Assembly: GCA_963804995.1 (NCBI GenBank)
Contig: CAWDSK010000005.1
Span: forward strand, 1,056,001-1,120,000
Direction of reading: 5' to 3'
DNA from: an uncultured Acidobacteriota bacterium
GTDB taxonomy: Bacteria > Acidobacteriota > Terriglobia > UBA7540
Length of the DNA stretch: 64,000 nt
Shown: piece after piece, positions 589-38,669 of the stretch
How the letters are laid out: each line of letters opens with the position of its first letter
Position numbering within the stretch: position 1 is the first letter of the stretch
Translations under genes and position numbers: made by a program
The notes under the pieces: generated by a model
Seen by the model: the letters and a program-made list of their open reading frames with translations, nothing else
Told to the model about the DNA's origin: nothing
The model's database searches: none

Positions 589-682
589 TTAGCGAACTTT
601 GTGAATTCGCGAAGGTATTCCGACTCTGCGATGCGCTAATCCCTCCGCTTTGAGGGGCTTGCCATTTGGCGTTTGCATTGCA
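589..682 (+). promoter_or_regulatory. sigma54 promoter cassette 1 (palindromic UAS + IHF-like site + -24/-12)
   Basis: TTAGCGAA-c-TTTGTGAATTCGCGAA (598-613); TTTGAGGGGCTTG 649-661; TTGGCGTTTGCATTGCA with GG 668-669 and GC 680-681 (10-nt spacer). Confidence 0.85.
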
Positions 683-738
683 TTGAGGAAGCCGAAGGAC
701 TGTTATGAAGAGTGGAGAAAATGTAAAGGAGCAAGGCC

Positions 739-1452
739 ATGGACAGAATGCTGGTGGTTGTCTTTGACTCGGAACCCAAAGCATCCGAAGGAAAGAAGGC
801 GCTGCAGCAATTGGAAAACGAGGGCAGCATTGTGGTCTACTCCGACGCCGTGGTGTGCAGGCATGCAGATGGCACCACAACGGTGGGGCAAAGGGAAGAC
901 CCTGGATACCCAGGGATTTTGGTCGGAACCTCGTTGGGAGCCCTCATCGGTCTTCTGGGTGGGCCGCCCGGCTTCGTGATTGGCGCTCTTGCGGGTTTGG
1001 CTGCCGGCGGCACGGTGGACCTGAACAACGCCAGGATCGGGGAGGACTTCATTGAGGACGTGAGACAGCAACTCCTGCCGAACCGGTTTGCACTCGTCGC
1101 GGAGATTCAAGAGGATTGGACAGCCCCCGTCGATAGCCGCATGGAAGCTATCGGCGGAACGGTATTCCGGCGGGCGCTGTCAGCAGTGAAGCACACGGTC
1201 AACGAAGAAGAGATCGCCGCCATTAAAGCCGACCTCGCGCAATTGAAGGCAGAGCATGCCATGGCTCACGCTGAACGGAAGGCCAAGCTCCATGAAAAGA
1301 TCAACCAGCTCGAGTCCAAGATACAGGCGCAGCTCGAAAAATCCAAGCAGCGGCGCCAGGCATCGGACGCCCAGGCCAAAGCCAAGGTTGAGGTCATTAA
1401 GGCCAGGGCCGCCGCGTTGAAAGCCAAGGCGACAGGGACCCCCACCAGTTAG
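739..1452 (+). CDS. DUF1269-family glycine-zipper protein with coiled-coil tail, copy 2
   Basis: MDRMLVVVFD start, GxLVGTSLGALIGLLGGPxG zipper, AAGGAG RBS. Confidence 0.88.
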   Translation: MDRMLVVVFDSEPKASEGKKALQQLENEGSIVVYSDAVVCRHADGTTTVGQREDPGYPGILVGTSLGALIGLLGGPPGFVIGALAGLAAGGTVDLNNARIGEDFIEDVRQQLLPNRFALVAEIQEDWTAPVDSRMEAIGGTVFRRALSAVKHTVNEEEIAAIKADLAQLKAEHAMAHAERKAKLHEKINQLESKIQAQLEKSKQRRQASDAQAKAKVEVIKARAAALKAKATGTPTS

Positions 1453-1507
1453 CACCCCTCCAGGACTTGCAGCTCAAGCTTTCTCCGCTCAGAAGCCCAG
1501 CTGGGTT

Positions 1508-1601
1508 TTCACGAACTTCGCGAATTCGCGAAAGTATTCCGACTCTGCGATGCGCTAATCCCTCTGTTTTGAGGGGCTTGCCATTTGGCGCTTGCATTGC
1601 A
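1508..1601 (+). promoter_or_regulatory. sigma54 promoter cassette 2
   Basis: TTCACGAA-c-TTCGCGAATTCGCGAA (1517-1532); GG 1587-1588 and GC 1599-1600 in TTGGCGCTTGCATTGCA. Confidence 0.9.
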
Positions 1602-1657
1602 TTGAGGAAGCCGAACGACTGTTATGAAGAGTGGAGAAAATGAAAAGGAGCAATACC

Positions 1658-2371
1658 ATGGACAGAATGCTTGTGGTGGTCTTTGATACGGAAAACAAAG
1701 CCTATGAAGGATGGAAAACGCTTCATCAATTGGAAAGCGAGGGAAGCATCGTAGTCTATGCCTACGCCGTAGTTGCCAAGAATGCAGACGGCACCACAAC
1801 GGTAAAGCAAGGTCAAGATACGGGAGTGGTCGGGACTCTGGTGGGAACCTCACTGGGAGCCCTCATCGGTCTTCTCGGCGGGCCTGCGGGCGTCGTGATT
1901 GGCGCTGGTGTGGGGTTAGTTGCCGGCGGCACGGTGGACATTGACAGAACCAGGGTTGCGCAGGACTTTCTTGAGGATGTGAAAAAGGAACTGCTGCCGA
2001 ACAAGTTCGCAGTGGTCGCGGAGATTAAAGAAGACGAGACCCAGCCGGTGGACACTCGCATGGAAGCGATCGGTGGAACGGTATTTCGCCGGGCGCTGAG
2101 CGAAGTGAAGCACGTGGTGAACGACGAGGAGGTTGCCGCCATGAAAGCCGACCTCGCGCAATTGAAGGCAGAGCACGCCAAGGTACGTGCCGACCGGAAA
2201 GCCAAGCTGCATAAGAAGATCAACCAGCTTGAATCCAAGATCCAGGCTCGGCTGGAGAAGAACAAGCAGCAACGCCAGGCAGCGGAGGCACAGGAAAAGG
2301 CAAAGGTGGAGGTCCTTAAGGCCAAGGCTGCGGCTTTGAAGGCCAAGGCGGCAGGGACCCACACTTCTTAG
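1658..2371 (+). CDS. DUF1269-family glycine-zipper protein with coiled-coil tail, copy 3
   Basis: Same architecture as copy 2; start set at MDRML after AAGGAG. Confidence 0.88.
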   Translation: MDRMLVVVFDTENKAYEGWKTLHQLESEGSIVVYAYAVVAKNADGTTTVKQGQDTGVVGTLVGTSLGALIGLLGGPAGVVIGAGVGLVAGGTVDIDRTRVAQDFLEDVKKELLPNKFAVVAEIKEDETQPVDTRMEAIGGTVFRRALSEVKHVVNDEEVAAMKADLAQLKAEHAKVRADRKAKLHKKINQLESKIQARLEKNKQQRQAAEAQEKAKVEVLKAKAAALKAKAAGTHTS

Positions 2372-2446: not shown

Positions 2447-2540
2447 TTCACGAACTTCGCGAATTCGCGAAAATATTCCGAATCTGTGATGCGCTAATCG
2501 ACCTGTTCTAAAGGGCTTACTAATTGGCTCTTGCATTGCA
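2447..2540 (+). promoter_or_regulatory. sigma54 promoter cassette 3
   Basis: TTCACGAA-c-TTCGCGAATTCGCGAA (2456-2471); GG 2526-2527 and GC 2538-2539 in TTGGCTCTTGCATTGCA. Confidence 0.9.
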
Positions 2541-2596
2541 ATGATGAAACCGAAGGCCTGCTACGACGAGAGGACAAAATGAAAAGGAGCAAAGCC

Positions 2597-3307
2597 ATGG
2601 ATAGAATGCTGGTGGTTACTTTCGATACGGAACCGAAAGCTTACGAAGGAAAGAAAGCGCTTATGCAATTGGAAGGCGAAGGCAGCATCGTAGTTTACGC
2701 CTACGCCGTGGTCGGCAGGAATGCCGATGGCACGACAACCGTAAGGCAAAGTGATGACCCGGGACCGCTCGGGACTCTAGTGGGAACGTCGGTGGGAGCC
2801 CTCATCGGTCTCCTCGGCGGGCCGGTCGGTTTGGCGGTTGGCACTGTTACCGGGATGTTTGCCGGCAGCACGGTGGACATCAACAACGCCAGGATTGGTG
2901 AAGACTTCATTGATGACGTGAAACAGCAACTCCAACCAAACAAGTTCGCCGTGGTGGCGGAGATCCAAGAAGACTGGACGACTCCGGTGGACACTCGCAT
3001 GGAAGCGATCGGGGGAACGGTCATCCGGCGTGCCCTGTCAGAAGTGAAGCAAACGGTTGACAACGAAGACGTCGCCGCCATGAAAGCCGACCTGGCGCAA
3101 ATGAAGGCTGAGCAAGCCAAGGCTCACGCCGACCGGAAAATCAAGCTCCTGGAAAAGATCAACCAGCTTGAGTCCAAGATCCAGGCGCAGCTCGAAAAAT
3201 CCAAGCAGCAGCGCCAGGCTGCGGAGGCCCAGGCGAAGGCCAAAGTCGAGGTCCTTAAGGCCAAGGCCGCGGCGTTGAAGGCCAAGGCGATGGAGACGCA
3301 CAACTAG
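2597..3307 (+). CDS. DUF1269-family glycine-zipper protein with coiled-coil tail, copy 4
   Basis: Same architecture; RBS AAGGAG. Confidence 0.88.
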   Translation: MDRMLVVTFDTEPKAYEGKKALMQLEGEGSIVVYAYAVVGRNADGTTTVRQSDDPGPLGTLVGTSVGALIGLLGGPVGLAVGTVTGMFAGSTVDINNARIGEDFIDDVKQQLQPNKFAVVAEIQEDWTTPVDTRMEAIGGTVIRRALSEVKQTVDNEDVAAMKADLAQMKAEQAKAHADRKIKLLEKINQLESKIQAQLEKSKQQRQAAEAQAKAKVEVLKAKAAALKAKAMETHN

Positions 3308-3741: not shown

Positions 3742-4329
3742 ATGACAATGACGAAACTTTCTGATGTGTTTATGGCGGGGATAGAAGAAATTAGAAAATC
3801 ATGGGGCTGGTTCCTCGTGTTGGGGATCCTGCTGATGATTCTTGGCGTAGTGTGCATCGGCAAAGCGCAGACTGCAACCACTTTTTCAATCCTGGCGTTG
3901 GGCTGGGTTCTTGCGATCAGCGCGGTGTTCTGGCTCATTGGTTCGTTTCAAGCGCTGGGCTGGGGCGGGTTCTTCATATACCTGCTGAACGCGATCATTC
4001 GCGGAGTGACCGGATACCTCCTGATTCGTCACCCGGACGCCGGCGCGGCAGGGGTGACCATGCTGCTCGCGGTACTCTTCATCGTAGGCGGGCTGTTCCG
4101 CACCGCTGGCGCGAGCGTTATCCGATTCCCTTGGTGGGGGTGGACGGCCTTTGCGGGACTCATCTCCATCGGTCTCGGTGTCTACCTGTTGGCCATTTGG
4201 GCTACCGCGAGCACCTTTTTTATTGGTATCGCCATCGGCGTGGACCTGATCTTCGACTCCGCGGCCCTGATAGCCTTTGCCGCCGCGATTCACAGTTTGC
4301 CTTCGGCGCAAAGCTACAAGGCCGCCTGA
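3742..4329 (+). CDS. hdeD: HdeD/DUF308 family membrane protein
   Basis: WGWFLVLGILLMILG start, ~6 TM segments, IGIAIGVDLIF motif. Confidence 0.85.
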   Translation: MTMTKLSDVFMAGIEEIRKSWGWFLVLGILLMILGVVCIGKAQTATTFSILALGWVLAISAVFWLIGSFQALGWGGFFIYLLNAIIRGVTGYLLIRHPDAGAAGVTMLLAVLFIVGGLFRTAGASVIRFPWWGWTAFAGLISIGLGVYLLAIWATASTFFIGIAIGVDLIFDSAALIAFAAAIHSLPSAQSYKAA

Positions 4330-4398: not shown

Positions 4399-5481
4399 AT
4401 GTTTTCGCTCGACAATCGTGCCGGGAATGTAATCACCACGGTGGCGGTCTACATGATCGCGGCGGCGGTCCTCTATATCGGACGTGGGGCGTTCCTCATT
4501 TTGCTGCTGTCCCTGCTCTTTGCGTACTTGCTGGAACCGGCGGTCACGTGGCTGCAGCAGCATTCATGGGTGGGCCGGAAGAACCGCACTGGGGCGATTG
4601 CACAGGTCTATCTGATCGGGATTCTTGTGCTAGGTAGCGTGGGGTACAAGTTAGGTCCGCATGTTGCGGCGCAAATAAAGAACCTGAATGCGGCGGTGCC
4701 CGAGATCTTGCAAGACCTTTCCAGTGGCAGGCCTCCTACGGGTCTGGGAGGCAAGCACGCCTTGAGCGACGCCCAGCAACAACAGATACAAGACTTATTG
4801 GCTCGTAACCGTGATTTCATCGCCCGTGCTTTCGAGCGCGGTGCGGCCTCCATAGGGTACATCGCCGCGAGCGCGATATGGCTTTTCCCCATCCCCATTC
4901 TGGCCGCCTTCATCTTACGGGACGGACGGCAGATGGCGGAGGCAATGCTGGAAGCCGCTGCACCGGGTCAGGAGGAAACACCGTTCAAGAGGATTGTGCG
5001 GCGGGTTGATACGATGCTGGGCAAGTACATTCGCGCCCAACTGGCCCTGGCGGGCCTCTCCTTCGGCTTCTACAGCATCTCCATGCTGGTCCTGGGATTC
5101 CCCTATGCGATTGCGCTGGGCTTGCTGGGAGGCGCTCTGGAATTCCTTCCCGTGGTGGGATGGATCATTTCGGCCCTAGCCTTTCTAACGGTCGGTTTCC
5201 TGACCCACTCCCACTGGATCTGGATGGCAGGATTGGTGGTGGCGTGGAGGCTAGTGCAGGATTATGTGAACTCGCCGCGCATTATGGGTAACAGCTTGGA
5301 GCTACGACCCCTGACCGTGGTGTTTGCGCTCATGGTGGGAGGTCAGGTGGGTGGAATTGCGGGCGTGTACCTTTCGGTGCCTGCCGTCGCCGTGCTCCGA
5401 ATCGTGTGGCTGGAATGTCTCGCGGCCCGGAAGTCCTCGACGGTCGTCGCCGAGCCGTCGCTCATGCAGGTGAAGGCATGA
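4399..5481 (+). CDS. AI-2E family transporter (PerM/TqsA-like)
   Basis: AYLLEPAV, YIRAQL, SPRIMG.SLELRP, GGIAGVYLSVP motifs. Confidence 0.9.
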   Translation: MFSLDNRAGNVITTVAVYMIAAAVLYIGRGAFLILLLSLLFAYLLEPAVTWLQQHSWVGRKNRTGAIAQVYLIGILVLGSVGYKLGPHVAAQIKNLNAAVPEILQDLSSGRPPTGLGGKHALSDAQQQQIQDLLARNRDFIARAFERGAASIGYIAASAIWLFPIPILAAFILRDGRQMAEAMLEAAAPGQEETPFKRIVRRVDTMLGKYIRAQLALAGLSFGFYSISMLVLGFPYAIALGLLGGALEFLPVVGWIISALAFLTVGFLTHSHWIWMAGLVVAWRLVQDYVNSPRIMGNSLELRPLTVVFALMVGGQVGGIAGVYLSVPAVAVLRIVWLECLAARKSSTVVAEPSLMQVKA

Positions 5482-5948: not shown

Positions 5949-6041
5949 TTCACGAGCTTCGCGAATTCGCGAAGAGATGACGAGTTTTTGATTCGCCTGT
6001 CGAAGTGTTTTCAAGGGCTTAGGTTTGGCCTTCGTATTGCC
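5949..6041 (+). promoter_or_regulatory. sigma54 promoter cassette 4
   Basis: TTCACGAG-c-TTCGCGAATTCGCGAA (5958-5973); IHF-like TTTCAAGGGCTTA 6009-6021; GG 6027-6028, GC 6039-6040. Confidence 0.88.
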
Positions 6042-6130
6042 CAACCCTACGGAGAGATCGAGGAGAAGAGTCACCGGGGTGACGAAGACTCACGATCAAA
6101 TCAAAGGGCAAGCAGTCCAAAGGAGGACTT

Positions 6131-6658
6131 ATGGCCGACAAAGCGAACAAAACGGTTTTTGTCTACGTTGCGAGTTACGCGAATCTCGATAACGCGAAGG
6201 CAGACTATGCGGGGGTGAAGCAGCTTTATTTTGACGGCGTCATCGGCGTGTATGATGCCGCAGTTATCAGCAAAGACGCGACTGGTCAGGTGAAGATCAA
6301 CAAGACCGAGATGCCGACGCAGTATGGGGCATGGGGTGGCTTGGCAGTGGGAGCTCTGGTTGGCATCTTCTTCCCGCCGTACCTGGTGTGGGAACTCGCG
6401 GCCGGGGCTGGCGCTGGATCTCTGATTGGGCACTTTTGGGGAGGAATGTCGCGTTCCGATCTGAAGGAGATTGGGGACACCCTTCAGGCGAGCACGGCGG
6501 CCCTGATCGTAATCGGCCGGTCGAGGCTGGAAGAGGCTTTGGCGGGAGCTACCAAGCACGCTGTGAAGCAGTTTGAAAAGGAACTGAGCACCGACGTCGA
6601 CGCCTTTAACAAGGAACTGACGAAGGCCGTCAGCCAATCGCTGAAGGCCACCTCATGA
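6131..6658 (+). CDS. DUF1269-family protein (short form, no long coiled coil)
   Basis: YDAAVISKDATGQVKI, GAWGGLAVGALVGIFFPP, GMSRSDLKEIG motifs; AGGAGG RBS. Confidence 0.85.
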   Translation: MADKANKTVFVYVASYANLDNAKADYAGVKQLYFDGVIGVYDAAVISKDATGQVKINKTEMPTQYGAWGGLAVGALVGIFFPPYLVWELAAGAGAGSLIGHFWGGMSRSDLKEIGDTLQASTAALIVIGRSRLEEALAGATKHAVKQFEKELSTDVDAFNKELTKAVSQSLKATS

Positions 6659-6695: not shown

Positions 6696-7406
6696 ATGGA
6701 CAGAATGCTGGTAGTGGTTTTTGATGACGAGAGCAAAGCCTACGAAGGAAAGAAGGTGCTTGAGCAACTGGATGGCGACGGCAGCATCTGTGTTTACGGC
6801 CACGCGGTGGTGGTGAAAAATCCAGACGGCACAACAACAGTAAGGCAAAGTGATGACCGGGGCCCCCTCGGGACCCTGGTCGGAACCCTGCTGGGAAGCC
6901 TGATCGGTCTACTAGGCGGGCCGACCGGTTCCGCCGTCGGCGCTGCTGTGGGGTTTGTTGGCGGCGCTGCGGCGGACCTGAACAAGGCCAGGATTGGTGA
7001 CGACTTTATTGTTGATGTGGCCAAGGTTCTGCTGCCAAACCGGGCGGCAGTAGTGGCGGAGATTGAAGAAGACTCGACTACGGCCGTGGACACCCGTATG
7101 GAGGCGATCGGCGGCACTACATTCCGCAGGGCCGTCTCAGGGGTTAAACACACGATCCACGACGAGAACCTTGCCGCCATCAAAGCCGAACTAGCCCAGA
7201 GGACGGCAGAGCTTGCCAAGGCTCATGCGGACCGAAAAGCCAAGCTCCAGGAAAAGATCAACCAGCTTGAATCCAAGCTACAAGCTTGGCTGGAGGAAGA
7301 CCAAGAGCGACGTCAGGCGGCGGAGCACGAAGCCCAGGCAAAAGCCCTGATACTCAAGGCTAAGGCAGCAGTCGCCAAGGCTAGGGCGGCGGAGACACAC
7401 ATTTAG
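6696..7406 (+). CDS. DUF1269-family glycine-zipper protein with coiled-coil tail, copy 5
   Basis: MDRMLVVVFD paralog of copies 1-4. Confidence 0.88.
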   Translation: MDRMLVVVFDDESKAYEGKKVLEQLDGDGSICVYGHAVVVKNPDGTTTVRQSDDRGPLGTLVGTLLGSLIGLLGGPTGSAVGAAVGFVGGAAADLNKARIGDDFIVDVAKVLLPNRAAVVAEIEEDSTTAVDTRMEAIGGTTFRRAVSGVKHTIHDENLAAIKAELAQRTAELAKAHADRKAKLQEKINQLESKLQAWLEEDQERRQAAEHEAQAKALILKAKAAVAKARAAETHI

Positions 7407-7435: not shown

Positions 7436-8552
7436 ATGCAATCCAACATTAAACTGGGAAGAATCCACGGAATCGAGATTGGGCTTCACTATAGCTGGTT
7501 CATCATCGCGGCCCTGATCATGTTCTCCCTCGGCGAGCACTTCCGTCTCGTTTACCCGAACTGGGGCACAAACCAGATCTGGATCACGGCATTGTTCACC
7601 GCTGTCCTGTTTTTCGTCAGCTTGCTGTTACACGAACTCTCCCATTCATTGGTGGCACAGGCCCGCGGGTTGAAAGTCAAGGCGATCACTCTGTTTGCGC
7701 TCGGCGGTGTTTCTCAAATCGAGAGCGACGCCACTGATGCGAAGACAGAATTCTGGGTCGCGATTGCCGGGCCGATCGCCAGCCTGATTATCGGATTTGG
7801 TTGCCTCGGCATTGCTTCCGGTCTGGGATGGCGGCGTCCGGCCGAACCCGCGGACCGCGGTGACCGCGGTCCTGGTGTGGCTGGGATATATCAACGTGGC
7901 TCTCGCGGTCTTCAACATGATTCCTGGCTTTCCACTCGATGGCGGCCGGGTGCTGCGCGCGATCGTGTGGGCGATTACCAAGAACCCAGACAGGTCCACC
8001 CGCATCGCCGCGCGCGTCGGCCAAGTCGTGGCCTTTCTATTCATTCTCTATGGAATATGGCAGTTCTTTGGTGGCGCCGGCTTTGGGGGGCTGTGGATCG
8101 CATTCATCGGCTGGTTTCTCATGGATGCGGCCAAAGCCAGTTACGGTCAGGCGGAGATTACGACGGCGTTTCAGGGCGTGCGAGTCTCTTCGGTGATGTC
8201 ACGTGATTGCGTTATTGTGAACCGCGGCATGAGTTTGCAGGAGTTTGTGGATTCGTACCTTCTAAGGACCGGCCAGCGCTGCTACGCCGTGGAGGACCAG
8301 GGCCGGCTGGTGGGCCTCATTACCCCACGCGATGTTGGCGCCATAGCGCGCGAGCGTTGGGACATGACCACCGTGCGCGAAGCCATGCGACCGCTGGAAA
8401 AGTTGCACATCATTACTCCTGACACGCAGGTTTTGGATGCCCTAAAACTCATGGCCGGCAATGATGTCAACCAACTACCGGTGGTTGCGAATGGCACTTT
8501 GCAAGGCGTTGTCTCTCGTTCCCAGCTTATGCAATTACTACAGATTGCTTAA
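7436..8552 (+). pseudogene. site-2 protease (M50) with CBS pair, frameshifted near 7848 (real or sequencing error)
   Basis: HELSH zinc motif in the first frame; [13 protein letters not shown] and CBS domains in the second; one extra C in the CCC run restores the frame. Confidence 0.85.
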
Positions 8553-8630
8553 GGGTAGAAGGAGAATCGAGGAGGAATGTTAGCGGCGTGAGGAAATCTC
8601 GCGGTCAAACCAATTCAAAGGAGAACGATC

Positions 8631-8921
8631 ATGGCAGACGAGACAAAGACATTCGAAGAGAACGTCAGGGCGCAGTTGGAGAAAAGCAAATCGCAGTTGC
8701 AAGAGATCGAAGCTCTTACCAAAGGAAGAGCCTCACAAGCGGTGAACGATGCAATCAACGGCCTCAAGAATAAGAGCCAAGAGATCGATAAGAAGTATCA
8801 AGGACTGAAGACCTCGGCCGACACAAAGGTTAAGGCTGAGATCCAGGAAGACCTGGAAAAATTCAACGTCACATTAGGACAAGTCGCTGCGAAGCTGAAG
8901 ACCCCAGCGCCCTCGAAGTAA
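8631..8921 (+). CDS. small coiled-coil protein
   Basis: AAGGAG RBS; all-helical K/E/Q-rich 96 aa. Confidence 0.75.
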   Translation: MADETKTFEENVRAQLEKSKSQLQEIEALTKGRASQAVNDAINGLKNKSQEIDKKYQGLKTSADTKVKAEIQEDLEKFNVTLGQVAAKLKTPAPSK

Positions 8922-9065
8922 GTGAAACTCGGGATCAACGACCGCCCGCGGAATGATTAGATCCATCGCCCAAGGGGCTCGAATCCTTCCGGGCTTCCCC
9001 GGGCGGTCGCGTTTGAGCATTCTGAGCCGCGTCCTCGTGTCTGCTTTAAAGTCGTTTGCAAAAAA

Positions 9066-9356
9066 ATGCGGACATTAACCGCATGCGGTACAAGAGAACC
9101 TTGCGATGCCGTCCTCTCACGGCAGTTCGTGATTGTAGTTGCCCTTTTCTTCGCGACCAATCTTGGGGCATGGGCCCAAGCCATTCCCTCTGGCCGCACA
9201 AAGGGGCCTCGTCGATTGGCTGCCTTGCGCATGCATCATAAACCCAGACGCAGCGGGGGCGGTTGGGGTGGTGGGGGTTTTGGGGGAGGTGGCGGAGGTT
9301 TCGGGGGTTTTGGTGGAGGTTCCTCGGGTGGGGGTGGCGCCGGCGGAGGCTGGTGA
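9066..9356 (+). pseudogene. TPM-domain (YgcG-like) protein remnant: signal peptide joined to Gly-rich tail
   Basis: Signal-like FVIVVALFFATNLGAWAQ, then GGGGFGGFGGGSSGGGGAGGGW, the typical tail of TPM partners of LemA; the middle is missing. Confidence 0.65.
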
Positions 9357-9394
9357 CAGATCCTCATACAGAGAAAATTTAGAGGAGGAAGGTC

Positions 9395-9976
9395 ATGAAA
9401 ATACTATTGGCGGTGGTGGGATTCCTGGCGCTGATGGCACTCATTATTGGAGGAGCTTACGTCAGCAGCCGAAACGAAATGGTCCGCAAAAATGAGGCTA
9501 TCAAACAGGCATGGGCGCAGGTAGATGTGGTGCTGCAACGGCGCGCCGACCTGATTCCGAACCTCGTGGCAACCGTGAAAGGTTATGCGCAACAAGAGGT
9601 GAAAGTGTTCGGAGATGTCGACAATGCCCGCGCCGCATTGTTGAGTGCCCGGACGCCGGCGGACAAGATTGCTGCGAATGGCCAATTGGATGGCGCCTTG
9701 GGCAAGCTGCTGGCCATCGTCGAGAACTATCCCAATCTCAAATCCAATCAGAACTTTCTGGCCTTGCAGGACGAATTGGCCGGAACCGAAAACCGCATTG
9801 CCGTCGAACGCCGCCGGTATAACGAGGCCATTCAGGATTACAATACCTACATCGGCCTTTTCCCCAATAACATCTTCGCCGGATGGGCTGGATTCCAGCG
9901 GAATAACGACTACTTCGCTGCTTCCGAGCCCGCGCGCCAAGCGCCTAAAGTGGATTTCAGCGCGCCCAAGCAGTGA
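9395..9976 (+). CDS. lemA: LemA family protein
   Basis: LQRRADLIPNLV.TVKGY, ENYPNLKSNQNF, ENRIAVERRRYN. Confidence 0.95.
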   Translation: MKILLAVVGFLALMALIIGGAYVSSRNEMVRKNEAIKQAWAQVDVVLQRRADLIPNLVATVKGYAQQEVKVFGDVDNARAALLSARTPADKIAANGQLDGALGKLLAIVENYPNLKSNQNFLALQDELAGTENRIAVERRRYNEAIQDYNTYIGLFPNNIFAGWAGFQRNNDYFAASEPARQAPKVDFSAPKQ

Positions 9977-9989
9977 TCCCATTATTTTT

Positions 9990-10082
9990 TTATCGAGATT
10001 CGCGAATTCGCGAAGAGATTGCGGCTCTATGGTTCATGTGTCGAAGTGTTTTCAAGCGTTTAGCTTTGGCCTTCGTCTTGCC
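9990..10082 (+). promoter_or_regulatory. sigma54 promoter cassette 5
   Basis: TTCGCGAATTCGCGAA (9999-10014); IHF-like TTTCAAGCGTTTA 10050-10062; GG 10068-10069, GC 10080-10081; long similarity to the cassette 4 leader. Confidence 0.88.
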
Positions 10083-11531: not shown

Positions 11532-11532
11532 G

Positions 11533-17105: not shown

Positions 17106-17198
17106 TTCACGAACTTCGCGAATTCGTGAAGGAATTGTGACCTCCTGATCCGTATACCCCAACGTTTTCAATGGGTTACATGTGGCCTTTGCATTGCA
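17106..17198 (+). promoter_or_regulatory. sigma54 promoter cassette 6
   Basis: TTCACGAA-c-TTCGCGAATTCGTGAA (17115-17130); IHF-like TTTCAATGGGTTA 17166-17178; GG 17184-17185, GC 17196-17197. Confidence 0.9.
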
Positions 17199-29062: not shown

Positions 29063-29801
29063 GGTTTAACCAATAGCTAAATTGCAGAGGCCAGCTTTAC
29101 CGGGGCCTATTGTGGATAGCCCGCAAATCCCCATTACTGCCCGAAAGTTCTCAAGAAATCCATAGTAAGCGGTCTAATTTCAATAAGTTAAAAAGATAGC
29201 AATGTTCTCTCAATTTGTTTTCAGCGGTCTATCAAGACGGACGTTGATGTTTGCCATCTTTTAGCCAGCAAACTCCCCAAGTGGAGCCAGAACCTGCCAA
29301 TTCCGTTAGGTCAAAGGTTGACAGATTGGGTGGGCCCGAACAATCCCCTGAACTCATAGCTCATAGCATGTATTTTCAATGATGTTTTCGAATGGCGGGC
29401 CATTTTCGCCTTTTCCAAACTCCCCCGCTTGACATTGAGCACTCAGCGATCGGTCTGAGACTTCGGACCATTAAGCATGCGGGGTCAAGCTTCCTTGGCG
29501 CGCGAACTGGGGGGTTCGCAGGAGCCCAGAATCTTGCGAATTATCGGCGCGGAGAGAAATAACTGTCGAAGTGGTTCATCCGCGGGCAGGGAGTTCGCCA
29601 GCTTCATAATCGTCCCGCGGCTGAGTGCCAAATGGCGTTTCGTCAACTCTCTTGATTTCATCCCCCGCTCGGGGCGCACAGTTTCTGCCTAAAAGAGCAG
29701 ACGTGCTTCGGTTGGTGTATGATGCGCGCTATGGCCTCTCCAGGACGCGAATCGGAGCCCGTGTACGTTTTCACCATGCCCGGCAAAGGTGAGGATGCTT
29801 G

Positions 29802-32800
29802 ATGATGGATAAACGAATCTCTGGATCCTGGCGCACAGCCTGGGAATGCCTGTTGGCCAGTATGGCGCTGGCCGTGTTGACCTTGGTCAGCTTTCGGCTC
29901 CATGCCGGTCCTGCCATGGCCGCCCTCCTCTTCTTTTTTTTGGTCGTATTGATTTCCCTGTGGGCAGGGTTTCTTTCGACGGTCTTTGCCTGCGCCGTGG
30001 CCGCTTTATGCTTTGTCTACTTCTTTACTCAACCGCTTTACCATCTTTGGATGAGCGAGCCCGTGGAAATTGCCGCGACGATTGCGTTCTCGAGTACCGC
30101 CCTAATCATTAGCCGCCTGTTGTCAAGGGTAAGAGAGCGGACCGCCGAGCTCCAGCAGGCCAACGAGCAGTTGCAGGCGGAAATCGCCGAGCGCAGGCGT
30201 GCGGAAGAAGGGGTTCGGCAAAGGGAAGCGGAGCTTCGGCAGCTTATCGACGCCATCCCTCAGCATGTCGTCGTCCTGGATCCGGATGGAAGTTTTCTTT
30301 ACTTGAATCAGGTTGCCCTCGAATACAGCGGTCTAACCCTGGAAGGCAGTTTGGCGAAGGAGTGTGTCCAGCAAAGGCTGGTATGTTCAGTGGGAGTTAG
30401 TCCCACCAAGGCAAGAGTCAGGAGCCTTGTAGCTTGGGTCGCATCCGTGGAGGAAACGAAGCGGATGAAGCTGACCGACAAAGCCATCCAAGGGATGGTG
30501 AGCGAGTCACCGGGCCGTAACGCAAGTGAACCCATAGGTGGCCTCGACAAAAAAATAGATCCGGAGGCCGAGCCCTCTCCTTCGGGGCGAAGGCAGCATG
30601 GCATGACGTGGGCTGACCGAGACGACATGTCACTCCGGCGGGGTGGTAGGGGCAGCACGGTGGCAAGGGCATGTCAAGCAACTGGAGAAACCGTCCTCGT
30701 CCCATCGAGAGATCGGTGGAGCAGGGTAGGCCGTATAACCGGAGACAACGGGAAATCGGCTGACGGCGAGACGGTGGCGGTTAGGCTCGAAGTAGCGACG
30801 AAGTGGGGTAACGCCCATGGAGCGAAGGGGCCTTGCTGCACAGCAAGTCTTGGCCAACATGGGAGGCAGGGGTGAAATGATAAAAGCGCCCTTTAAGCTG
30901 CAAGACCTGCGGCGAAGACTTTACGTCAAGGCGAAGGCTGAACCGACTTGGCGATTCTGGGGGTTGTATGTCCACGTCTGCAAACGAGAAACTCTCTGGG
31001 AAGCGTATCAGCTAGCTAAGGAGAACAAGGGAGCCCCAGGAGTAGATGGGGTCACGTTCCAGGCAATCGAGGCTGAAGGCTTGCAGGGATTTCTCGAACA
31101 GCTTCGCGAGGAGCTGGTGCAGCGGAGATATCGACCTCGACGGCTGCGGAAGGTAGGGATTCCGAAGGAGGGCGGAAAGGTTCGCCAACTTTCGATTCCT
31201 TGCATTCGCGACCGAGTGGTCCAGGGAGCGTTGAAGCTGATCCTGGAACCGATCTTTGAGGCCGATTTCCAACCGGGATCGTTTGGCTACCGGCCGAAGA
31301 AGTCAGCCCACGCTGCGATTCAACGCGTCTCGGAGGCAATCGTGCGGCACATGACCTTTGTCGTTGATCTCAACTTGCGTTCCTACTTCGATACGGTTCG
31401 ACATTCCCTCGTACTGGAGAAGGTGGCACGGCGAGTGAACGACACCGAGGTCCTAGGGCTGCTCAAACTGCTGCTGAAGGCGTCGGGGAAGCAGGGTGTT
31501 CCGCAAGGCGGGGTGATTTCGCCCTTGCTCAGTAACGTGTACCTCAATGAGGTGGACAAGATGCTGGAAAAGGCGAAGGAAGTCACCCGCGAGGGGCGGT
31601 GGATGAACGTCGAATATGCCAGATTCGCCGATGATCTGGTGGTTCTGGTGAACGCTCATCCCCGGCAGGCCTGGCTTCGCAAGGCAGTGGAAAAGCGGCT
31701 ACGGGAGGAGTTGGCCAAGCTGCAGGTTGAGGTGAACGAGGAGAAAAGCCGGAGGGTGGATCTTCAGCAAGGAGAGAGTTTCGGATTTCTGGGGTTTGAG
31801 TTCCGTCGCATCCGCAGTCGGCGGGGCCGATGGATGCCGCTGCGTACGCCGCGGGGCAAGAAGCGGACGGCATTGCTACGCAAGCTCAAGCTAGTTTTCC
31901 GGAGCTATCGCTCTCAGCCTGTGAGGGGGTTGATCGAGCAGATCAATCCCATTCTGCGCGGCTGGGTGAACTACTTTGCGGTCGGGCACTCCAGCCGGTG
32001 CTTCTCGTATATCCGCGACTGGGTAGAGAAGAAGATTCGGTGCCACTTGGCGAGGGCCAGACAACGCCCAGGCTTCGGATGGAAGCGGTGGCGTAAGGAG
32101 TGGCTGTATGGCACGCTCGGGCTCTTCCACGAGTACCGCGTGGTCCATCAGTCATCCTCCTGGGCAGCCGCCCCGACCCGATAGGCCCCATAACCCTTGC
32201 CGTGAAGTGTGCAGGAACGCGTAGTGCGGGAAATCCGCACGCTACGTGTGATGTGGCGGGAGCTGGAAACGGGGCTCGGAGCTTTCTCGGAGCCGCCGCG
32301 CCAGTTCCCGACCCTACCTCTCTGACGAAGCTCTTTCACCCCGACGATCTGGAAAGAGTAGTGGGGGAACGCCAGCAGACGATTTCACGCGGCGTGCCAT
32401 GGGATGCGGAAGTGCGGATACGCGGAAAAGACGGCGACTACCGCTGGTTCATAATCCGTCTCAACCCTCTGCGGGACGAGCAGGGACGCATCCTTCGGTG
32501 GTATGGCACAAGTACCGACATCGAGGATCGCAAGCGGGCCGAAGAAACCTTGCGGGGGCAGGCAGATCTTCTCAATCTCACGCACGACGCCATTTTTGTA
32601 GCGGATATGGAGGGGGTGATCAAGTACTGGAATCATGGCAGCGAGGAGCGGTACGGCTGGACCGCCGAGCAAGCGGTGGGCACAGTTGTTCACGACCTGC
32701 TGAAGACAGTCTTCCCGGCGCCGCTGGAGCAAATCAAAACGGAAGTGATACGTAAAGGTCGCTGGGATGGCGAACTTGTGCATACCAAGAAGGACGGAAC

Positions 32801-35699
32801 CCGGGTAGTGGTGGCGAGCCGTTGGTCTTTGCAGCGGGACAAGCAAGGCGCGCCAGTTGCCATCCTGGAAACCAACAACGATATCACGGACCGCAAGCGG
32901 GCGGAGGAGGCGTTGCGTCGTTTGAACCGCGAACTGCGAGCGATCAGCAACTGTAACCAGATCCTCCTGCGCGCCACTGACGAGCAGAGCTTGCTCGAAG
33001 AAATCTGCCGGATCGTCTGCCAGGAGGCCGGTTACCGCATGGCGTGGGTGGCCTATGCCGAGCACGACGAGGCCAAGAGCGTGCGCCCTGCCGCGTGGAC
33101 CGGGACCGAGGAGGGATATCTCGCAAACCTCGGCATTACTTGGGCCGACACGGAGCGCGGGTGGAGCCCTACCGGGACAGCCATCCGCAGCGGGAAAAGT
33201 TGCTGCATTCAGGATTTCGCCACGGATCCCCGCCTGGCGCCCTGGCGGGAGAGCGTTTTGCAGCACGTTTTTCTTTCCGGCATCGCCCTGCCGCTTAAGG
33301 ACGAACACGCGAGCGCCTTCGGCAGTCTTAGCATTTATTCCGCACAGCCCAACGCTTTTACGTCGGAAGAGATTCGGCTGCTGGAGGAACTGGCTGGCGA
33401 CCTGGCGTTCGGCATCATCACCCTGCGATCGCGGGCCACTGGCGAACGGGCAGAGCTGGCTCTGCGGCAGAGTGAGGCTTATTTAGCGGAATCGCAGAGG
33501 CTGACCCACACGGGTAGTTGGGCTTTGGATTTGGCCAGCGACAAGTATGTCTACGTTTCGGAGGAGGACTTTAGACTTTGGGGATTTGATGCGCAAGAGG
33601 GTTTACCGTCGCGGGAAGCAGTTTTCCGACGAATCCACCCGGAGGATCGGGACAAGATGAGAGCGAGCTTTGAGAAGTCGCTTCGCGAAAAAGTAGATTC
33701 CTCCGACGAGTACAGGATCGTGCTGCCCGACGGAACGGTCAAACATGTTCACACCATCCGCCACCCTGTCCTGAATGGCGCGGGAGACCTCGTTAAATTG
33801 GTGGGCACATCAGTGGATATCACGGAACGCAAACAGGCGGAGGAAGCGCTGCGCGAGAGCGAGACGCGCTTTCGCACCTTTGTGGACCACGCCGCGGACG
33901 CCTTCTTCATCCTGGACTTCGAGCAAGGAACCATTATTGATGTGAACCGGAGCGCCTGCGAGAGCCTTGGTTATACGCGGCAGGAACTGATCGGGACGAT
34001 GGGGCTTGCCTTCGACCAGAACGTGGATCGAGCGGTTACGGAATCGATCGCGGAGCGGACGGCGGCGGGCGAAACCGTGATCGACACGCACTGGCATCAG
34101 CGCAAGGACGGGACGCTGTTCCCTGTGGAAGTACACACCAGCCAGTATTGGCGGGGAGGCCGTCGCTTCCTGCTGAAGGTAGCCCGGGACACCAGTGACC
34201 GTTTGCGGGCCGAGGAAGCGCGCGCCTACCTCGCCTCCATCGTGGAGTCCTCCGACGACGCGATAATCGGAAGATCCATGGAGGGGATCATTCAATCCTG
34301 GAACCGGGGCGCGGAGAGGCTCTATGGGTATACGGCCCAGGAGGCGATTGGCCAGCCGATCACCCTGGTGATTCCACCCGACCGTGCCCAAGAATTCGTG
34401 AGTAGCGACCGCCTCAAACGGGGAGAGCCGATTCAGGAGTTCGAAACCGTTCGGGTGGGGAAAGATGGCCGGCGAATCGATGTGTCAGTCATTATCTCCC
34501 CTATGAAGGACGCCGCCGGTCGCGTGCTCGGCGCCGCGACGGTCGCCCGCGACATCACCGAGCGCAAGCGCGCTCAGGAGGCACTGCGGAGAAGCGAGGC
34601 TTATCTGGCGGAAGGGCAGCGGCTGAGTCACACAAGCAGTTGGGCTTTCGATTTGGCCAGCAACAAGTATATCTACGTTTCGGAGGAAAACTTCCGAATT
34701 TTTGAAATGGATGCACAAGAGGGTCTACCGAACAGGGAAGCGATTTCCCGACTTATCCACCCGGAGGATTGGGACAGGGTGAACGAGGCCTTTGAGAAGT
34801 CGCTCCGCGAAAAAGTAGATGCCTCGAGCGAGTTCAGGATCGTGCTGCCCAGCGGAACGGTCAAACATCTTCAGGCGATCCGGCACCCAGTCCTGAATGA
34901 TGCGGGAGACGTCGTTGAACTGGTGGGTAGCGTGATCGATATTACGGAACGCAAGCGCGCCGAACAAGAGCGCGAGAGGCTGCGCCAACTCGAGGCGGAT
35001 CTCGCGCACCTCGACCGCGTAAGCATGATGGGGGAACTGGCAGCCTCCATCGCCCACGAAGTCAACCAGCCGCTTTCGGGCGTCGTGGTCAACGCCAATG
35101 CCTGCTTGCGTTGGCTGGCGGGAGATTCGCCCAATCTTGACGAAGCCCGGGAGACTGTCCGGCGTATCGTCCGCGACGGGAAGCGGGCGGGAGACGTGAT
35201 CGCCCGCATTCGGGCTCTGGCGACGAAAACAGCCACCACCAAGGAACGGCTGGATATGAACGAGGCCATTCGGGAGGTCGTGGCTTTTGCCCAGGACGAA
35301 GTCCGCAGGAATCGTGTGACCCTGCGAACCGAATTCGCGCCTGATCTCTCCCTGGTGTGGGGCGATCGAGTGCAGCTTCAGCAGGTGGCCCTTAACCTGG
35401 TCATGAACGCGGTCGAAGCCATGAGCAGCGTGGAAGAGCGGCCGCGAGAGCTGATCGTCAGAACGCAAAACGATGATGCCGGCCAGGTGCGGGTTACCGT
35501 CCAAGACTCGGGGATGGGGCTTGACCCGCAGAGCATGGAACGGATTTTTGATGCTTTCTACACCACCAAGCACGGGGGAATGGGCATGGGGCTCTCGATT
35601 AGTCGTTCCATTATCCAGAATCACGGGGGCAAGCTATGGGCGGTGGCGAATGACGGGCCAGGCATAAGCGTTCAGTTTACTATTCCCAAGTACCAATAG
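29802..35699 (+). CDS. multi-sensor histidine kinase (DUF4118-like TM, 6 PAS, GAF, HisKA, HATPase) split by a group II intron; join(29802..30361,32318..35699), ~1313 aa
   Basis: Spliced junction reads LAK-D-SLTKLFHPDD in frame; IAHEVNQP H-box, QVALNLVMNA, DSGMG, FYTTK.GGMGMGL. Confidence 0.92.
30362..32317 (+). mobile_element. group II intron, 1956 nt
   Basis: 5' GTGTG, 3' CCCTAC; domain V GAACGCGTAGTGCGGGAAATCCGCACGCTACGT at ~32215-32250; EBS1 TCCTTC (30578-30583) in a GCCC/GGGC loop complements exon IBS1 GAAGGA (30356-30361). Confidence 0.93.
30877..32184 (+). CDS. ltrA: group II intron RT/maturase without endonuclease domain
   Basis: GAPGVDG, IPCIRDRVVQ, SFGYRP, PQGGVISPLLSN, RFADD, maturase INPILRGWVNYF. 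Confidence 0.95.
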   Translation: MIKAPFKLQDLRRRLYVKAKAEPTWRFWGLYVHVCKRETLWEAYQLAKENKGAPGVDGVTFQAIEAEGLQGFLEQLREELVQRRYRPRRLRKVGIPKEGGKVRQLSIPCIRDRVVQGALKLILEPIFEADFQPGSFGYRPKKSAHAAIQRVSEAIVRHMTFVVDLNLRSYFDTVRHSLVLEKVARRVNDTEVLGLLKLLLKASGKQGVPQGGVISPLLSNVYLNEVDKMLEKAKEVTREGRWMNVEYARFADDLVVLVNAHPRQAWLRKAVEKRLREELAKLQVEVNEEKSRRVDLQQGESFGFLGFEFRRIRSRRGRWMPLRTPRGKKRTALLRKLKLVFRSYRSQPVRGLIEQINPILRGWVNYFAVGHSSRCFSYIRDWVEKKIRCHLARARQRPGFGWKRWRKEWLYGTLGLFHEYRVVHQSSSWAAAPTR

Positions 35700-35708
35700 G
35701 AGTCCCCT

Positions 35709-36338
35709 TTGCCGGAGCCTGACGCATTAGTCTTGGTTGTGGACGACGACGTGTCGGTGCGCGAGGCTTTGGAAGGTTTGATTCGGTCCGCGGGATTGAG
35801 GGCCGAGACCTTTCGCTCGGCGCAGGAGTTTTTGGCTCGCCCGAGGGCCGATGTGCCAAGCTGCTTGGTATTGGATGTTCGGCTGCCGGGTCTGAGCGGG
35901 CTCGAGCTTCAGAAGCGCATGGCCGAGGCCAACCTGGAGATTCCGATTATTTTTATTACCGGCCACGGCAATGTTCCGGCTGCGGTGCAGGCCATGAAAG
36001 CGGGTGCGCAGGAGTTTCTTACCAAGCCCTTCACGGACCGGGACCTGTTAGACGCGATTCAAAAGGCGATAAATTGCGATCGGGTGGCGCGCCGGCATCA
36101 GGCAGAAATGCGCGAGTTGCGCGGCCGGTATGAATCCTTAACGCCGCGCGAACGAGAGGTTATGGAGCTGGTGGTCTCCGGGTTGCTGAATAAACAAGTG
36201 GCCGCTGAACTGGGGACCAGCGTGATTACGGTTAAAATTCAGCGCGGCCAGGTTATGCGCAAGATGCGGGCCGACTCTTTGGCCGACCTGGTGAGAATGT
36301 CCGAGAGCCTGGGGATACGGCGCGTGAAGAAATTGTAG
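35709..36338 (+). CDS. FixJ/NodW-type response regulator (REC + LuxR HTH)
   Basis: [37 protein letters not shown]. Confidence 0.93.
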
Positions 36339-36424
36339 GTCCGGGCCGCCCTCCTCCCCCCAGACGAACTTAATACCAAGGTGTGATAGACAAGGCCACT
36401 TGCCAGGGTGCTAAATGAACCTGT

Positions 36425-36814
36425 ATGGCGAAGGTTCCTCTAATTACGGTAGTTGATGACGACGAGTCGGTCCGTGAATCCCTGGACGGTTTATTGAGGT
36501 CCGTGGGGTTTGCGGCGAAGGTATTTGCTTCGGCCGAAGAGTTCTTGAATTCGGACCATCTGAGCGATATCGACTGCCTGTTGCTGGATGTGCGCCTGCC
36601 GGGCATGAACGGGATCGAACTCCACCATCACTTGGTGGCCAATCGCAGTGAGGTACCCGTTATCTTCATCACAGCCCATGGATCTGAGGAAGGGGTGCGC
36701 TCCCAGGCTTTGCGGAACGGCGCGGTGGATTATCTGATCAAGCCACTCAGTGAAGATACGGTGTTGAATGCGGTCCAGAAGGCTCTGAGCGCGAAGCAAC
36801 ATACCCAGGGATAA
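36425..36814 (+). CDS. single-domain response regulator
   Basis: VDDD, LDVRLPG, ITAH, IKP; no output domain. Confidence 0.92.
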   Translation: MAKVPLITVVDDDESVRESLDGLLRSVGFAAKVFASAEEFLNSDHLSDIDCLLLDVRLPGMNGIELHHHLVANRSEVPVIFITAHGSEEGVRSQALRNGAVDYLIKPLSEDTVLNAVQKALSAKQHTQG

Positions 36815-36915
36815 TCTTAATTCAAGAACCTATAACCATAGGTTATTGCGGGATTGATTAAACGCAGTGAGGTTTTCCTGTCAAACCCATTGGACAATCG
36901 TAGGGAGGCTTTCCC

Positions 36916-38394
36916 ATGAGTGACAGAGGCGCTCCAATCTACTTGGTAGACGACGATGTATCGGTGCGGGAATCGGTGGGAAGTCTGATTCGCTCCGCAG
37001 GATTCCGGGCGAAAACGTTCGCGTCGGCGCAGGAGTGTTTAGCCGGCCTGCAAGCTGAACAGCCGAGCTGTTTGGTACTGGATGTGCAGCTCCCGGGGCT
37101 AAGCGGACTCGATCTTCAACAAGAGCTTGCCAAGGCGGATGTGCAACTCCCGATTATTTTCCTGACCGGCCACGGCGACATTCCCATGTCCGTACGCGCC
37201 ATGAAAGCCGGCGCCCTGGAGTTCTTGACCAAGCCCTGTGACGGTGAAGATCTACTGAATGCTATCCGGCAGGGTATCGCTCGTCATCAGGCAGCCCGGC
37301 AGCCAAGTCAAAACCTGGCGCAGCATAGTTTTGACGGCAGCATCGGTGCGAGGGCAGAATCAAGCGATAAACTCGCGCCGGAAAAGCTCTACCTGGGGGA
37401 AGAAATCTGTCGGGAGGCGAACTTCGAAGGCATCGTGGGACAGAGTCCAGCCCTCCGGGAGGTGCTGAAACTCGTCGAAGTGGTGGCGGCAAGCGATTCG
37501 ACCGTGCTCGTGTTGGGAGAGACGGGCACCGGCAAGGAACTCATTGCGCGCGCTATTCACAATCGCAGCCTGCGCAAGCAACGAGGTTTTGTCAAGCTCA
37601 ACTGCGCCGCGGTGCCCAGCGGCTTGCTTGAGAGTGAACTGTTTGGCCACGAGCGCGGCGCCTTCACGGGCGCCATCACGCAAAGGGCCGGGCGGCTCGA
37701 AGTTGCAGATCAGGGTACGCTGTTCCTGGATGAGGTCGGGGACATCCCTTTGGAAATCCAACCGAAACTGCTGCGCGTATTGCAGGAGCGGGAATTCGAG
37801 CGATTGGGCAGTACGCGGACGAAGAAAGTTGACGTTCGGGTCGTGGCGGCAACCCATCGTGCCCTGGAAGAAATGATCGTGGAGAAGCAGTTTCGCCTCG
37901 ATCTCTACTACCGTCTGAATGTTTTCCCCATTCATATTCCACCCTTGCGCGAACGTCCGGAAGACATTCCGCTGCTCGTTTGTCATTTCGTCCGGCAATT
38001 CGCCCAGCGAATGAACAAGACCATTGATGGGATTTCTTGCGACACGATGGAGGCGCTGATTCGATACTCATGGCCGGGGAACATCCGGGAGCTGCAAAAC
38101 GTTATCGAACGATCAGTGATTGTTCACGTAAAAGGGAACCTCTCAGTCAAGCAGAGCTGGCTTGCTCACGAATGCCTCGCCACCGGATCGGCAACAGCGT
38201 CGTCCTTCAGAAAGTCGGTGAGGGAGGAGCGAAAAGTGATTGGCGCGGCCTTGGCCGAGACGCGCGGCCGAGTGTCGGGACCGTTGGGCGCGGCCGCCAA
38301 GCTGGGCATTCCTCCTTCGACTCTGGAATCGAAGATCCGAGCGATGAAGATCAACAAGCATAGCTTCAAGACCTTCAGTGCCGTTCCAAGCTAA
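36916..38394 (+). CDS. sigma54-dependent enhancer-binding response regulator (REC + AAA+ + Fis-like HTH, FhlA-like C-terminus)
   Basis: [57 protein letters not shown]. Confidence 0.96.
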
Positions 38395-38576
38395 TGAATC
38401 TCGGGGCGTTTGACTTTATTGCCTACCCGTATCGGGCGGAGGATGTGTGGATTCTAGGCACAGCGCTCCGCAGACGCCCTGAGCCTGCGCGGAAACCCAA
38501 GACTAACTCGGGGCGCGGAACCTCCGCCCAACCTTACTCGCCCAACCTTACTCCCCCCAGCTATCCAATCTAGGTA

Positions 38577-38669
38577 TTCGCGAACTTCGTGAATTCGCGA
38601 GAAGATTGCGGCGGTGAGATGCGCGAACCTTAGCGTTTTCAAGAGGTTGCAATTGGCGCTTGCATTGCA
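38577..38669 (+). promoter_or_regulatory. sigma54 promoter cassette 7
   Basis: TTCGCGAA-c-TTCGTGAATTCGCGAG (38586-38601); IHF-like TTTCAAGAGGTTG 38637-38649; GG 38655-38656, GC 38667-38668. Confidence 0.9.

Follow-up and report, generated by a model that had tools for sequence, protein, structure and literature searches.

A rigidly spaced sigma-54-type enhancer cassette, its putative activators and its candidate regulon in an uncultured Terriglobia bacterium

Enhancer-dependent activation of sigma-54 promoters by bacterial enhancer-binding proteins (bEBPs) of the NtrC family is an established mechanism. The Acidobacteriota are among the most abundant soil bacteria and, to our knowledge, almost nothing is known of their gene regulation. 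Here we describe a promoter cassette that recurs in a 64-kb stretch of DNA (C5:1056001-1120000, hereafter the window) from the 7.55-Mb, nine-contig assembly of an organism of the class Terriglobia. The cassette comprises a 16-bp dyad, TTCGCGAATTCGCGAA, an additional octamer upstream of it, a box resembling a site for integration host factor (IHF) and a -24/-12 element. We consider it probable (roughly 0.8) that a single dedicated regulon uses these cassettes as its enhancer-dependent sigma-54 promoters, with the dyad and the neighbouring octamer forming the upstream activating sequence (UAS) of a clade of bEBPs that we term class A.

In the phage-shock (PspF/pspA) system of Escherichia coli, a membrane-stress regulon is served by a sigma-54 promoter whose bEBP sites cluster in the upstream 130 bp or so, an IHF site lying between sites and promoter; the cassettes resemble it, with the IHF-like box as a putative counterpart. 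The class-A bEBP of most other Terriglobia is moreover domain-less (AAA+-HTH), as is PspF. However, the operator is a different one, the source-genome bEBP has a receiver and a paired histidine kinase, and class A scored below both PspF equivalog cut-offs (TIGR02974, 283 vs 443.55 bits; NF008622, 240.7 vs 529). No PspA domain was found among the window and related-locus proteins scanned with Pfam. NtrC, ZraR, AtoC, GlrR and FhlA share with the class-A bEBP of the window the REC-AAA+-HTH_8 organization and a partner kinase, and they act as dimers on a dyad UAS that oligomerise on clustered sites; class A differs in its recognition helix, its operator and its FixJ-like receiver (NCBIfam scan of the bEBP at 36916-38394). 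The best NCBIfam match of the class-A AAA+-HTH region was the formate hydrogenlyase activator (NF011958, 423 bits vs a cut-off of 830), NtrC (403 vs 558.6) and ZraR (363 vs 760 bits) likewise fell under their cut-offs, and no named bEBP equivalog cut-off was reached in NCBIfam (NtrC, formate hydrogenlyase activator, ZraR, AtoC, NifA, NorR, GlrR). NifA-activated nifH and similar IHF-assisted sigma-54 promoters have a UAS, an IHF bend and a -24/-12 element in that order, which the cassettes would share, but the cassette UAS lies much closer to the promoter (centre at about -87) and its spacing is held within 1 bp in most copies.

A further related system is PexR of Myxococcus xanthus, a bEBP that governs a stress regulon of peroxide genes through tandem dyad repeats (CACCG-n6-CGGTG) upstream of a sigma-54 promoter and carries a metal-binding GAF sensor; the homologs reported for it within Acidobacteriota belong to Holophagales and Acanthopleuribacterales, not to Terriglobia (PMC12754779). 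Class A differs in its N-terminus, which is REC or absent instead of GAF, and in its dyad. The architecture is textbook; the bEBP, the operator and the regulon appear to be undescribed. An earlier sequence-only reading of the window had not recognised the operator from any described regulon, and we likewise found no description of operator or regulon in the open literature under the octamer, DUF1269, or Acidobacteria/Terriglobia with sigma-54, RpoN or bEBP; subscription journals and RegPrecise lay outside this scope. The main text of a 2025 comparative sigma-54 regulon paper makes no mention of Acidobacteria. Two papers contain the octamer, one as part of a lone AcoR site and the other within a primer sequence; neither is related.

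Layout and conservation of the cassette

Nine copies were located in the source genome, seven of them in the window:

L001:13697 (C5:1049697), + strand: upstream cassette, heading STAS-MlaE-ABC-MlaD-auxiliary lipoprotein genes
L001:19619 (C5:1055619), + strand: upstream cassette, heading a DUF1269 gene whose 3' part is window 2-469
589..682, + strand: cassette 1; dyad 598-613, 2 mismatches; degenerate IHF-like box; TGGCGTTTGCATTGC; upstream of DUF1269 gene 739-1452
1508..1601, + strand: cassette 2; exact dyad 1517-1532; upstream of DUF1269 gene 1631-2371
2447..2540, + strand: cassette 3; exact dyad 2456-2471; upstream of DUF1269 gene 2579-3307
5949..6041, + strand: cassette 4; exact dyad 5958-5973; upstream of DUF1269 genes 6131-6658 and 6696-7406
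9990..10082, + strand: cassette 5; exact dyad 9999-10014; upstream of a 29-codon DUF1269 remnant, 10174-10260
17106..17198, + strand: cassette 6; dyad 17115-17130, 1 mismatch; heading a co-directional array to about 29062
38577..38669, + strand: cassette 7; dyad 38586-38601, 2 mismatches; 191 bp past the bEBP stop

The sequence-only reading had reported seven such promoters; all seven were found at its coordinates, and the total rose to nine with the two copies just upstream of the window. The starts that it gave mark the extra octamer, and the dyads begin 9 bp further on. Allowing up to three mismatches, the dyad matched eight times in the window vs 0.66 expected, and eight matches were reached in none of 100 shuffles. 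The eighth match (49188) was put down to chance, as it lies within a Usp ORF and has no -24/-12 box. The range of 0-2 mismatches given earlier agreed with our search, which returned 2, 0, 0, 0, 0, 1 and 2 for copies 1-7. Counted from the dyad start, the T of TGG[CT]-N7-TTGC lies at 69, 69, 69, 68, 68, 68 and 68 bp, and the GG at 70, 70, 70, 69, 69, 69 and 69 bp, where alignment and script reproduced the earlier values exactly. The TGG[CT]-N7-TTGC element is present in 9/9 source-genome copies, and its GG-N10-GC spacing equals that of the sigma-54 consensus (TGGCAC-N5-TTGCW).

The remaining boxes were read from the alignment and lie where they had been described. The third octamer, 9 bp upstream of the dyad, reads TTAGCGAA, TTCACGAA, TTCACGAA, TTCACGAG, TTATCGAG, TTCACGAA and TTCGCGAA in copies 1-7. 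A TTTCAA-N4-TTA box begins 18 bp before the GG in copies 4-7, and a degenerate form of it (TTTGAG/TTCTAA) 19 bp before the GG in copies 1-3. Because the distance from the dyad to this IHF-like box is constant at 51 bp in both the 68-bp and the 69-bp window copies, the extra base of the 69-bp copies must fall between the box and the -24 element. The dyad includes CGCGAATTCGCG, the Dickerson dodecamer with its narrow AATT minor groove; we speculate that such a groove would suit a Fis-type HTH dimer.

The association of dyad and promoter element held genome-wide. Among 73 dyad matches with up to three mismatches, the -24/-12 box was found at 68-69 bp in nine and in 0/64 others, and all seven matches with at most one mismatch carried it. 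A profile hidden Markov model (HMM) of the cassette, built from natural copies, returned nine full-length matches in the whole genome (E <= 1.1e-14), all on the + strand and within 45 kb (C5:1049685-1094670); the best match elsewhere reached E = 0.026. A chance origin of the cassettes was ruled out by the shuffles, the genome-wide counts and the profile HMM. On inspection, a reading of the dyad as a terminator was also rejected, as its stem has 6 bp, no T-run follows and the distance to the -24/-12 box is always fixed. At the Rfam gathering threshold, cassettes and leaders matched no known RNA family, a group II intron being the sole match. As a separate observation, an intergenic stretch of G000 (C6:170735-170769) holds the octamer TTCACGAT, TTCGCGAATTCGCGGG and, directly, TTTTTCAACTTA, with one base missing from the GG-GC spacing; this site, which lies outside the island, has the look of a cassette that has collapsed or degenerated.

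We then have to ask whether the likeness of the copies reflects a selected operator. It might instead stem from repeated duplication of one promoter fragment together with paralogous genes, in which case recent common ancestry would suffice. Copies 1-3 do precede tandem DUF1269 paralogs and have near-identical promoters, and copies 4 and 5 have a common leader. The wider comparison speaks otherwise. Related records are metagenome-assembled genomes (MAGs) labelled Acidobacteriaceae, Terracidiphilus, Terriglobales or Ca. Acidoferrales. Among 41 related genomes, the dyad with at most one mismatch occurred 7 times in G000, 9 in G017, 5 in G002 and 4 in G018, and 0-2 times in the others; in the retrieved stretches of related genomes, the matches were full cassettes of the same layout. 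The exact 16-mer was present in 14/401 genomes of the class, from four families, vs 0/401 for a reversed control sequence. Of 16 exact sites in the 13 other genomes, 10 had TGG-N9-KGC at 64-72 bp, four had CGG-N9-TGC at 66-68 bp and two had neither. Pooling gave 54 distinct cassettes of this type (type 1) from 32 loci in about 20 Terriglobia genomes of at least four families. The third octamer was recovered with at most two mismatches in 43/54 cassettes vs 4/54 at a control position, and an IHF-like core with at least 7/9 matching bases in 47/54; this core started 51 bp after the dyad start in 37 of the 47 and 18 or 19 bp before the GG in 46. Information content came close to its maximum within the boxes, whereas the spacers carried little. 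With boxes near-invariant and spacers drifting across the 54 copies, and with cassettes heading unrelated gene families, the earlier argument for selection over duplication alone is supported, and duplicated sigma-54 promoters would in any case still require a bEBP. We therefore give the duplication account hardly any credence and retain the reading of the dyad as a selected operator. The regulon is an accessory island, patchy across Terriglobia; many carriers are fragmented MAGs, and absences hold for the genomes searched.

The putative class-A activators and their link to the dyad

Two bEBPs of class A are encoded in the island, together with their sensor genes:

L001:11515-12936, + strand: paralogous class-A bEBP, 473 aa; stop 760 bp before the first cassette
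29799..36814, + strand: sensor module; DUF4118/PAS/GAF histidine kinase pieces 29799-30875 and 32100-35699, then regulators
35709-36338, + strand: LuxR-type response regulator of the sensor module
36425-36814, + strand: single-domain receiver of the sensor module
36916..38394, + strand: class-A bEBP, 492 aa; REC, AAA+ with GAFTGA, HTH_8; proposed dyad binder

A single Sigma54_DBD match (491-aa frame, 189.5 bits) marks the one rpoN of the source genome, in which about 20 full bEBP genes were counted. The sequence-only reading had inferred one activator and had put forward the HTH of ORF 36916-38394 for binding assays. This candidate stands, being a complete REC-AAA+-HTH_8 bEBP with GAFTGA (PF00158, 241 bits; PF02954, 24.8 bits, cut-off 22) whose orthologs co-occur with cassettes and are usually adjacent to them, and a class-A clade indeed tracks the cassettes. 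The count does not stand: there are two paralogous putative activators, 69% identical, both with GAFTGA and near-identical in their recognition-helix regions. Each closes a module of four genes, in the order PAS/GAF histidine kinase, LuxR-type regulator, single receiver and bEBP. The helices of the other bEBPs of G000 are unrelated to class A.

In the kinase genes, two irregularities were noted. A group II intron (RF02003 at 30388-30525, 125.9 bits; reverse transcriptase/maturase ORF 30817-32184) splits the kinase gene 29799-35699, so that an intact kinase would require splicing. In the upstream module (L001:7565-10367; C5:1043565-1046367), the kinase shifts frame between an N-terminal ORF (7565-9730) and a C-terminal match (9669-10367) and is without about 260 residues of PAS repeats present in the window copy; the gene is a pseudogene with a frameshift, or else the assembly is wrong here.

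Orthologs of the window bEBP with at least 70% identity that reach into the HTH were found, among the 41 related genomes, only in G000, G002, G017 and G018, exactly the four cassette-rich ones; the best bEBP matches in the other 37 were ordinary paralogs with at most about 66% identity. Over all loci we collected 22 distinct class-A bEBPs, sharing the helix G[IL]P[PA]STLES[KR]IR. A type-1 cassette lies at most 800 bp past the stop of 13/22 class-A genes; at locus L033 it overlaps the end of the class-A frame, and two more class-A genes have a cassette within 6 kb.

The dyad might alternatively be the operator of another protein, such as the LuxR-type regulator or an unlinked repressor, with the bEBP contacting other DNA or acting from solution. 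Both regulatory modules of the island do contain a gene for a LuxR-type regulator. However, LuxR homologs were not found in the cassette loci with a domain-less bEBP (L032, L033, L035-L039, L042) and were present in L048-L054, where there is no cassette and the bEBP has a different HTH; the regulator travels with the HK-LuxR-REC-bEBP module (HK, histidine kinase) even at these distant loci, and it is the class-A bEBP gene that tracks the cassette. The fixed distance of the dyad to the -24/-12 element also fits an enhancer. We regard the alternative as very unlikely and keep class A as the probable dyad binder.

A further argument comes from a sister pair. In many other Terriglobia the class-A protein consists of AAA+-HTH only (350-420-aa frames; for example L033:5920-7077), and directly upstream of it lies the gene of a large PAS-rich bEBP, class B (for example L033:2403-5432), with a Pro-to-Arg change in the recognition helix. 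Past the class-B stop comes a second type of cassette with like geometry: TTGTACAG is followed by the dyad TTCGCCAATTGGCGAA, then by an additional TTCGCCAT, the T-rich box found in type 1 and, at 67 bp, TTGGA-N7-ATTGC. Downstream of it lie a STAS gene of 87 aa and the class-A gene:

L032:5292, L033:5480, L036:5460, L038:5361, L042:5501, L044:5690 and L055:4079: type-2 cassettes; box at L045:5536

A single symmetric position (G/C) separates the dyads, and a single residue (Pro/Arg) the helices. Because of this paired change, and because each bEBP gene has its own dyad after it, we provisionally assign class A to TTCGCGAATTCGCGAA; the pairing is, in our view, the strongest sequence-only argument for matching protein to site. 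In the source genome, the sister dyad gave no cassette, and its matches with at most two mismatches that carry a box were the type-1 sites themselves. Separately, a PAS-bEBP with a different HTH (L019:8532-10025, in G017) stands in an operon behind a type-1 cassette (DUF1269-VTT-bEBP), which hints at a further regulatory tier in that genome.

A proposed mechanism and its weighing

Under the proposed mechanism, the adjacent PAS/GAF histidine kinase would phosphorylate the receiver of the bEBP and so permit the AAA+ ring to form on the clustered half-sites. Class-A dimers would occupy the dyad, centred near -87, at about -94 to -79, and a further half-site for class A would lie at about -103 to -96. 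A sharp bend at TTTCAA-N4-TTA, probably the work of an IHF-like protein, would carry the ring to the promoter, where sigma-54 holoenzyme would wait closed on TGGC-N7-TTGCA until ATP hydrolysis opened the DNA. The expected output is a coordinated set of membrane, envelope and general stress genes, and the ECF (extracytoplasmic function) sigma factor may widen the response. In other Terriglobia, the input would be transcription of the class-A gene by the class-B tier. The motif, its geometry, its exclusivity within the genome, its conservation and its co-occurrence and adjacency with class A are observed; the binding protein, the involvement of IHF, the phosphorylation signal, the position of the transcription start site and the inducing stress are what we infer here. 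A search of sequencing runs listed no RNA run that contains the stretch, and each of the 19 DNA entries contained at most 0.10 of its sampled words.

A broader model is conceivable, in which sister bEBPs form a two-tier cascade within a portable Terriglobia stress island. Class B, acting on TTCGCCAATTGGCGAA, would drive STAS and the domain-less class A, which in turn would act on the stress genes behind TTCGCGAATTCGCGAA, with one residue and one symmetric base pair insulating the tiers. In the lineage of the window, rewiring would have come about when a FixJ-like receiver, taken from an HK-LuxR-REC-bEBP module, was joined to the class-A core, and the three half-sites in fixed phase would template the ring. 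We put this model forward tentatively, at somewhat less than even odds.

Several points weigh against the single-regulon reading. The dyad-to-TGG distance of the 54 pooled cassettes was 68 bp in 31, 69 bp in 15, 70 bp in three, 67 bp in three and 66 bp in two, and as the definition of a cassette already required dyad and box at 65-71 bp, only the 68-69-bp peak is informative. The co-occurrence of class A and cassettes counts qualitatively only, because related genomes are not independent samples. Six of the 22 class-A loci (L040, L041, L044, L045, L046, L055) had no type-1 cassette in flanks of ~6 kb, and the 87%-complete assembly of G011 yielded no bEBP of high identity, although one of its contigs, 3 kb long, carries a true cassette.

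The other adverse points concern the box. The genome has two HU/IHF-family genes (L060:1501-1845 and L061:1489-1758) with IHF-beta as best NCBIfam match, and they scored 112 and 88 bits vs a cut-off of 115. The IHF-like core spans roughly -43 to -31, which leaves very little room before the -24 element. Of 83 TTGGY-N7-TTGCW sites in the genome, the box was flagged at five, namely four cassettes and the non-cassette site C1:225738, and none was recognised at the remaining 78, few of which are likely to be promoters. A role of the box as a general feature of the genome's sigma-54-like sites was accordingly dropped; being cassette-specific in the source genome, it could bind something other than IHF. 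A cassette-specific factor, an extended contact of sigma-54 or the alpha C-terminal domain, or a second bEBP contact would each account for its restriction to cassettes, its unusual nearness to -24 and the sub-threshold IHF scores. Against this, the box agrees at all positions but one with the IHF core consensus WATCAANNNNTTR, against which it was scored; it is common to type-1 and type-2 cassettes, whose bEBPs differ; and with the UAS centre no more than some 87 bp away, contact with the promoter would call for sharp bending of the DNA. A non-IHF box is unlikely on balance, though far from negligible, and the assignment to IHF, based on resemblance to the consensus, is itself weak. With that reservation, the earlier reading of a UAS, an IHF-like site and a -24/-12 element agreed with the sequence at all testable points, and we continue to favour sigma-54 promoters activated by class A from the dyad.

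Genes behind the cassettes and their meaning

Pfam scans showed the island to be almost wholly co-directional, with four intact DUF1269 genes in tandem. Behind cassette 3, DUF1269 is followed on the same strand by DUF308 (3742-4329) and an AI-2E transporter (4399-5481), a gene order also found behind a G017 cassette. The array of cassette 4 continues with an M50 peptidase (7436-8206), small ORFs and LemA (9395-9976). The remnant after cassette 5, which holds the first 29 DUF1269 codons, precedes MacB-ABC-HlyD-OEP exporter genes (10353-14477); because G017 keeps a full DUF1269 gene, along with a 96-aa gene, between cassette and macB, the remnant looks like the product of a deletion. The array of cassette 6 encodes 83-aa and 216-aa ORFs, DUF308, a Dps/ferritin-like protein, Rieske, glutaredoxin, FTR-beta, a second Rieske, ECF sigma, FtsH, rhomboid, a P-type ATPase and Usp, and the order 83 aa-DUF308-ferritin-sigma-FtsH recurs behind a G017 cassette. 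Cassette 7 lies upstream of a Pal/OmpA-like gene (38700-39506), DUF2934-Hsp20 (39537-40064) and Usp (40122-40472). In other genomes, the first genes after cassettes were DUF1269, the most frequent target, as well as Hsp20-BON-Usp, the MlaB/E/F/D-like set STAS-MlaE-ABC-MlaD, MacB-ABC, DUF308-ferritin-sigma-FtsH, M48, M50, LemA-TPM, sortase-DUF4136, DoxX and an MCRA-family (PF06100) protein. The targets proposed earlier (DUF1269 genes, the exporter, the hdeD-dps-redox block and pal-hsp20) were all found downstream of cassettes, and like families recur after cassettes elsewhere.

Some further features of the region were recorded. A DDE_Tnp_1 insertion sequence occurs twice between cassette-driven operons (window 14516-16231 and L001:17583-19472, both on the - strand), and the internal ORFs are arranged alike in the two copies. 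The leader after copies 4 and 5 (6048-6142, 10089-10185) and its orthologs in L021, L035 and L039 contain nested inverted repeats of the pattern GATCG..GAG..GTCAC-N4-GTGAC..CTC.CGATC; the predicted fold has 13 pairs, mostly invariant, with one compensatory change and no Rfam match, and could represent an RNA hairpin or a second DNA operator. Downstream of the regulon, window 42329-55115 contains Usp genes in tandem, a LigD distributed over three genes (for phosphoesterase, ligase and primase-polymerase) and genes for a glycogen phosphorylase-like protein, an isoamylase and a protein of HAD phosphatase type, none with a cassette; this neighbourhood looks dormancy- or desiccation-related.

For the Acidobacteriota, the finding supplies an operator defined precisely enough to be tested, together with a candidate for its regulator and a list of genes for a stress response of membrane, envelope and dormancy type. 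This list includes many proteins without known function. Most genomes that carry the element are uncultured and metagenome-derived. The sister operator/regulator pairs, one base pair and one residue apart, offer a natural experiment in the divergence of bEBP specificity, and the rigid cassette of about 95 bp could act as a compact orthogonal sigma-54 expression module. If the two-tier cascade were true, the Acidobacteriota would gain with it their first defined stress regulon and operator code.

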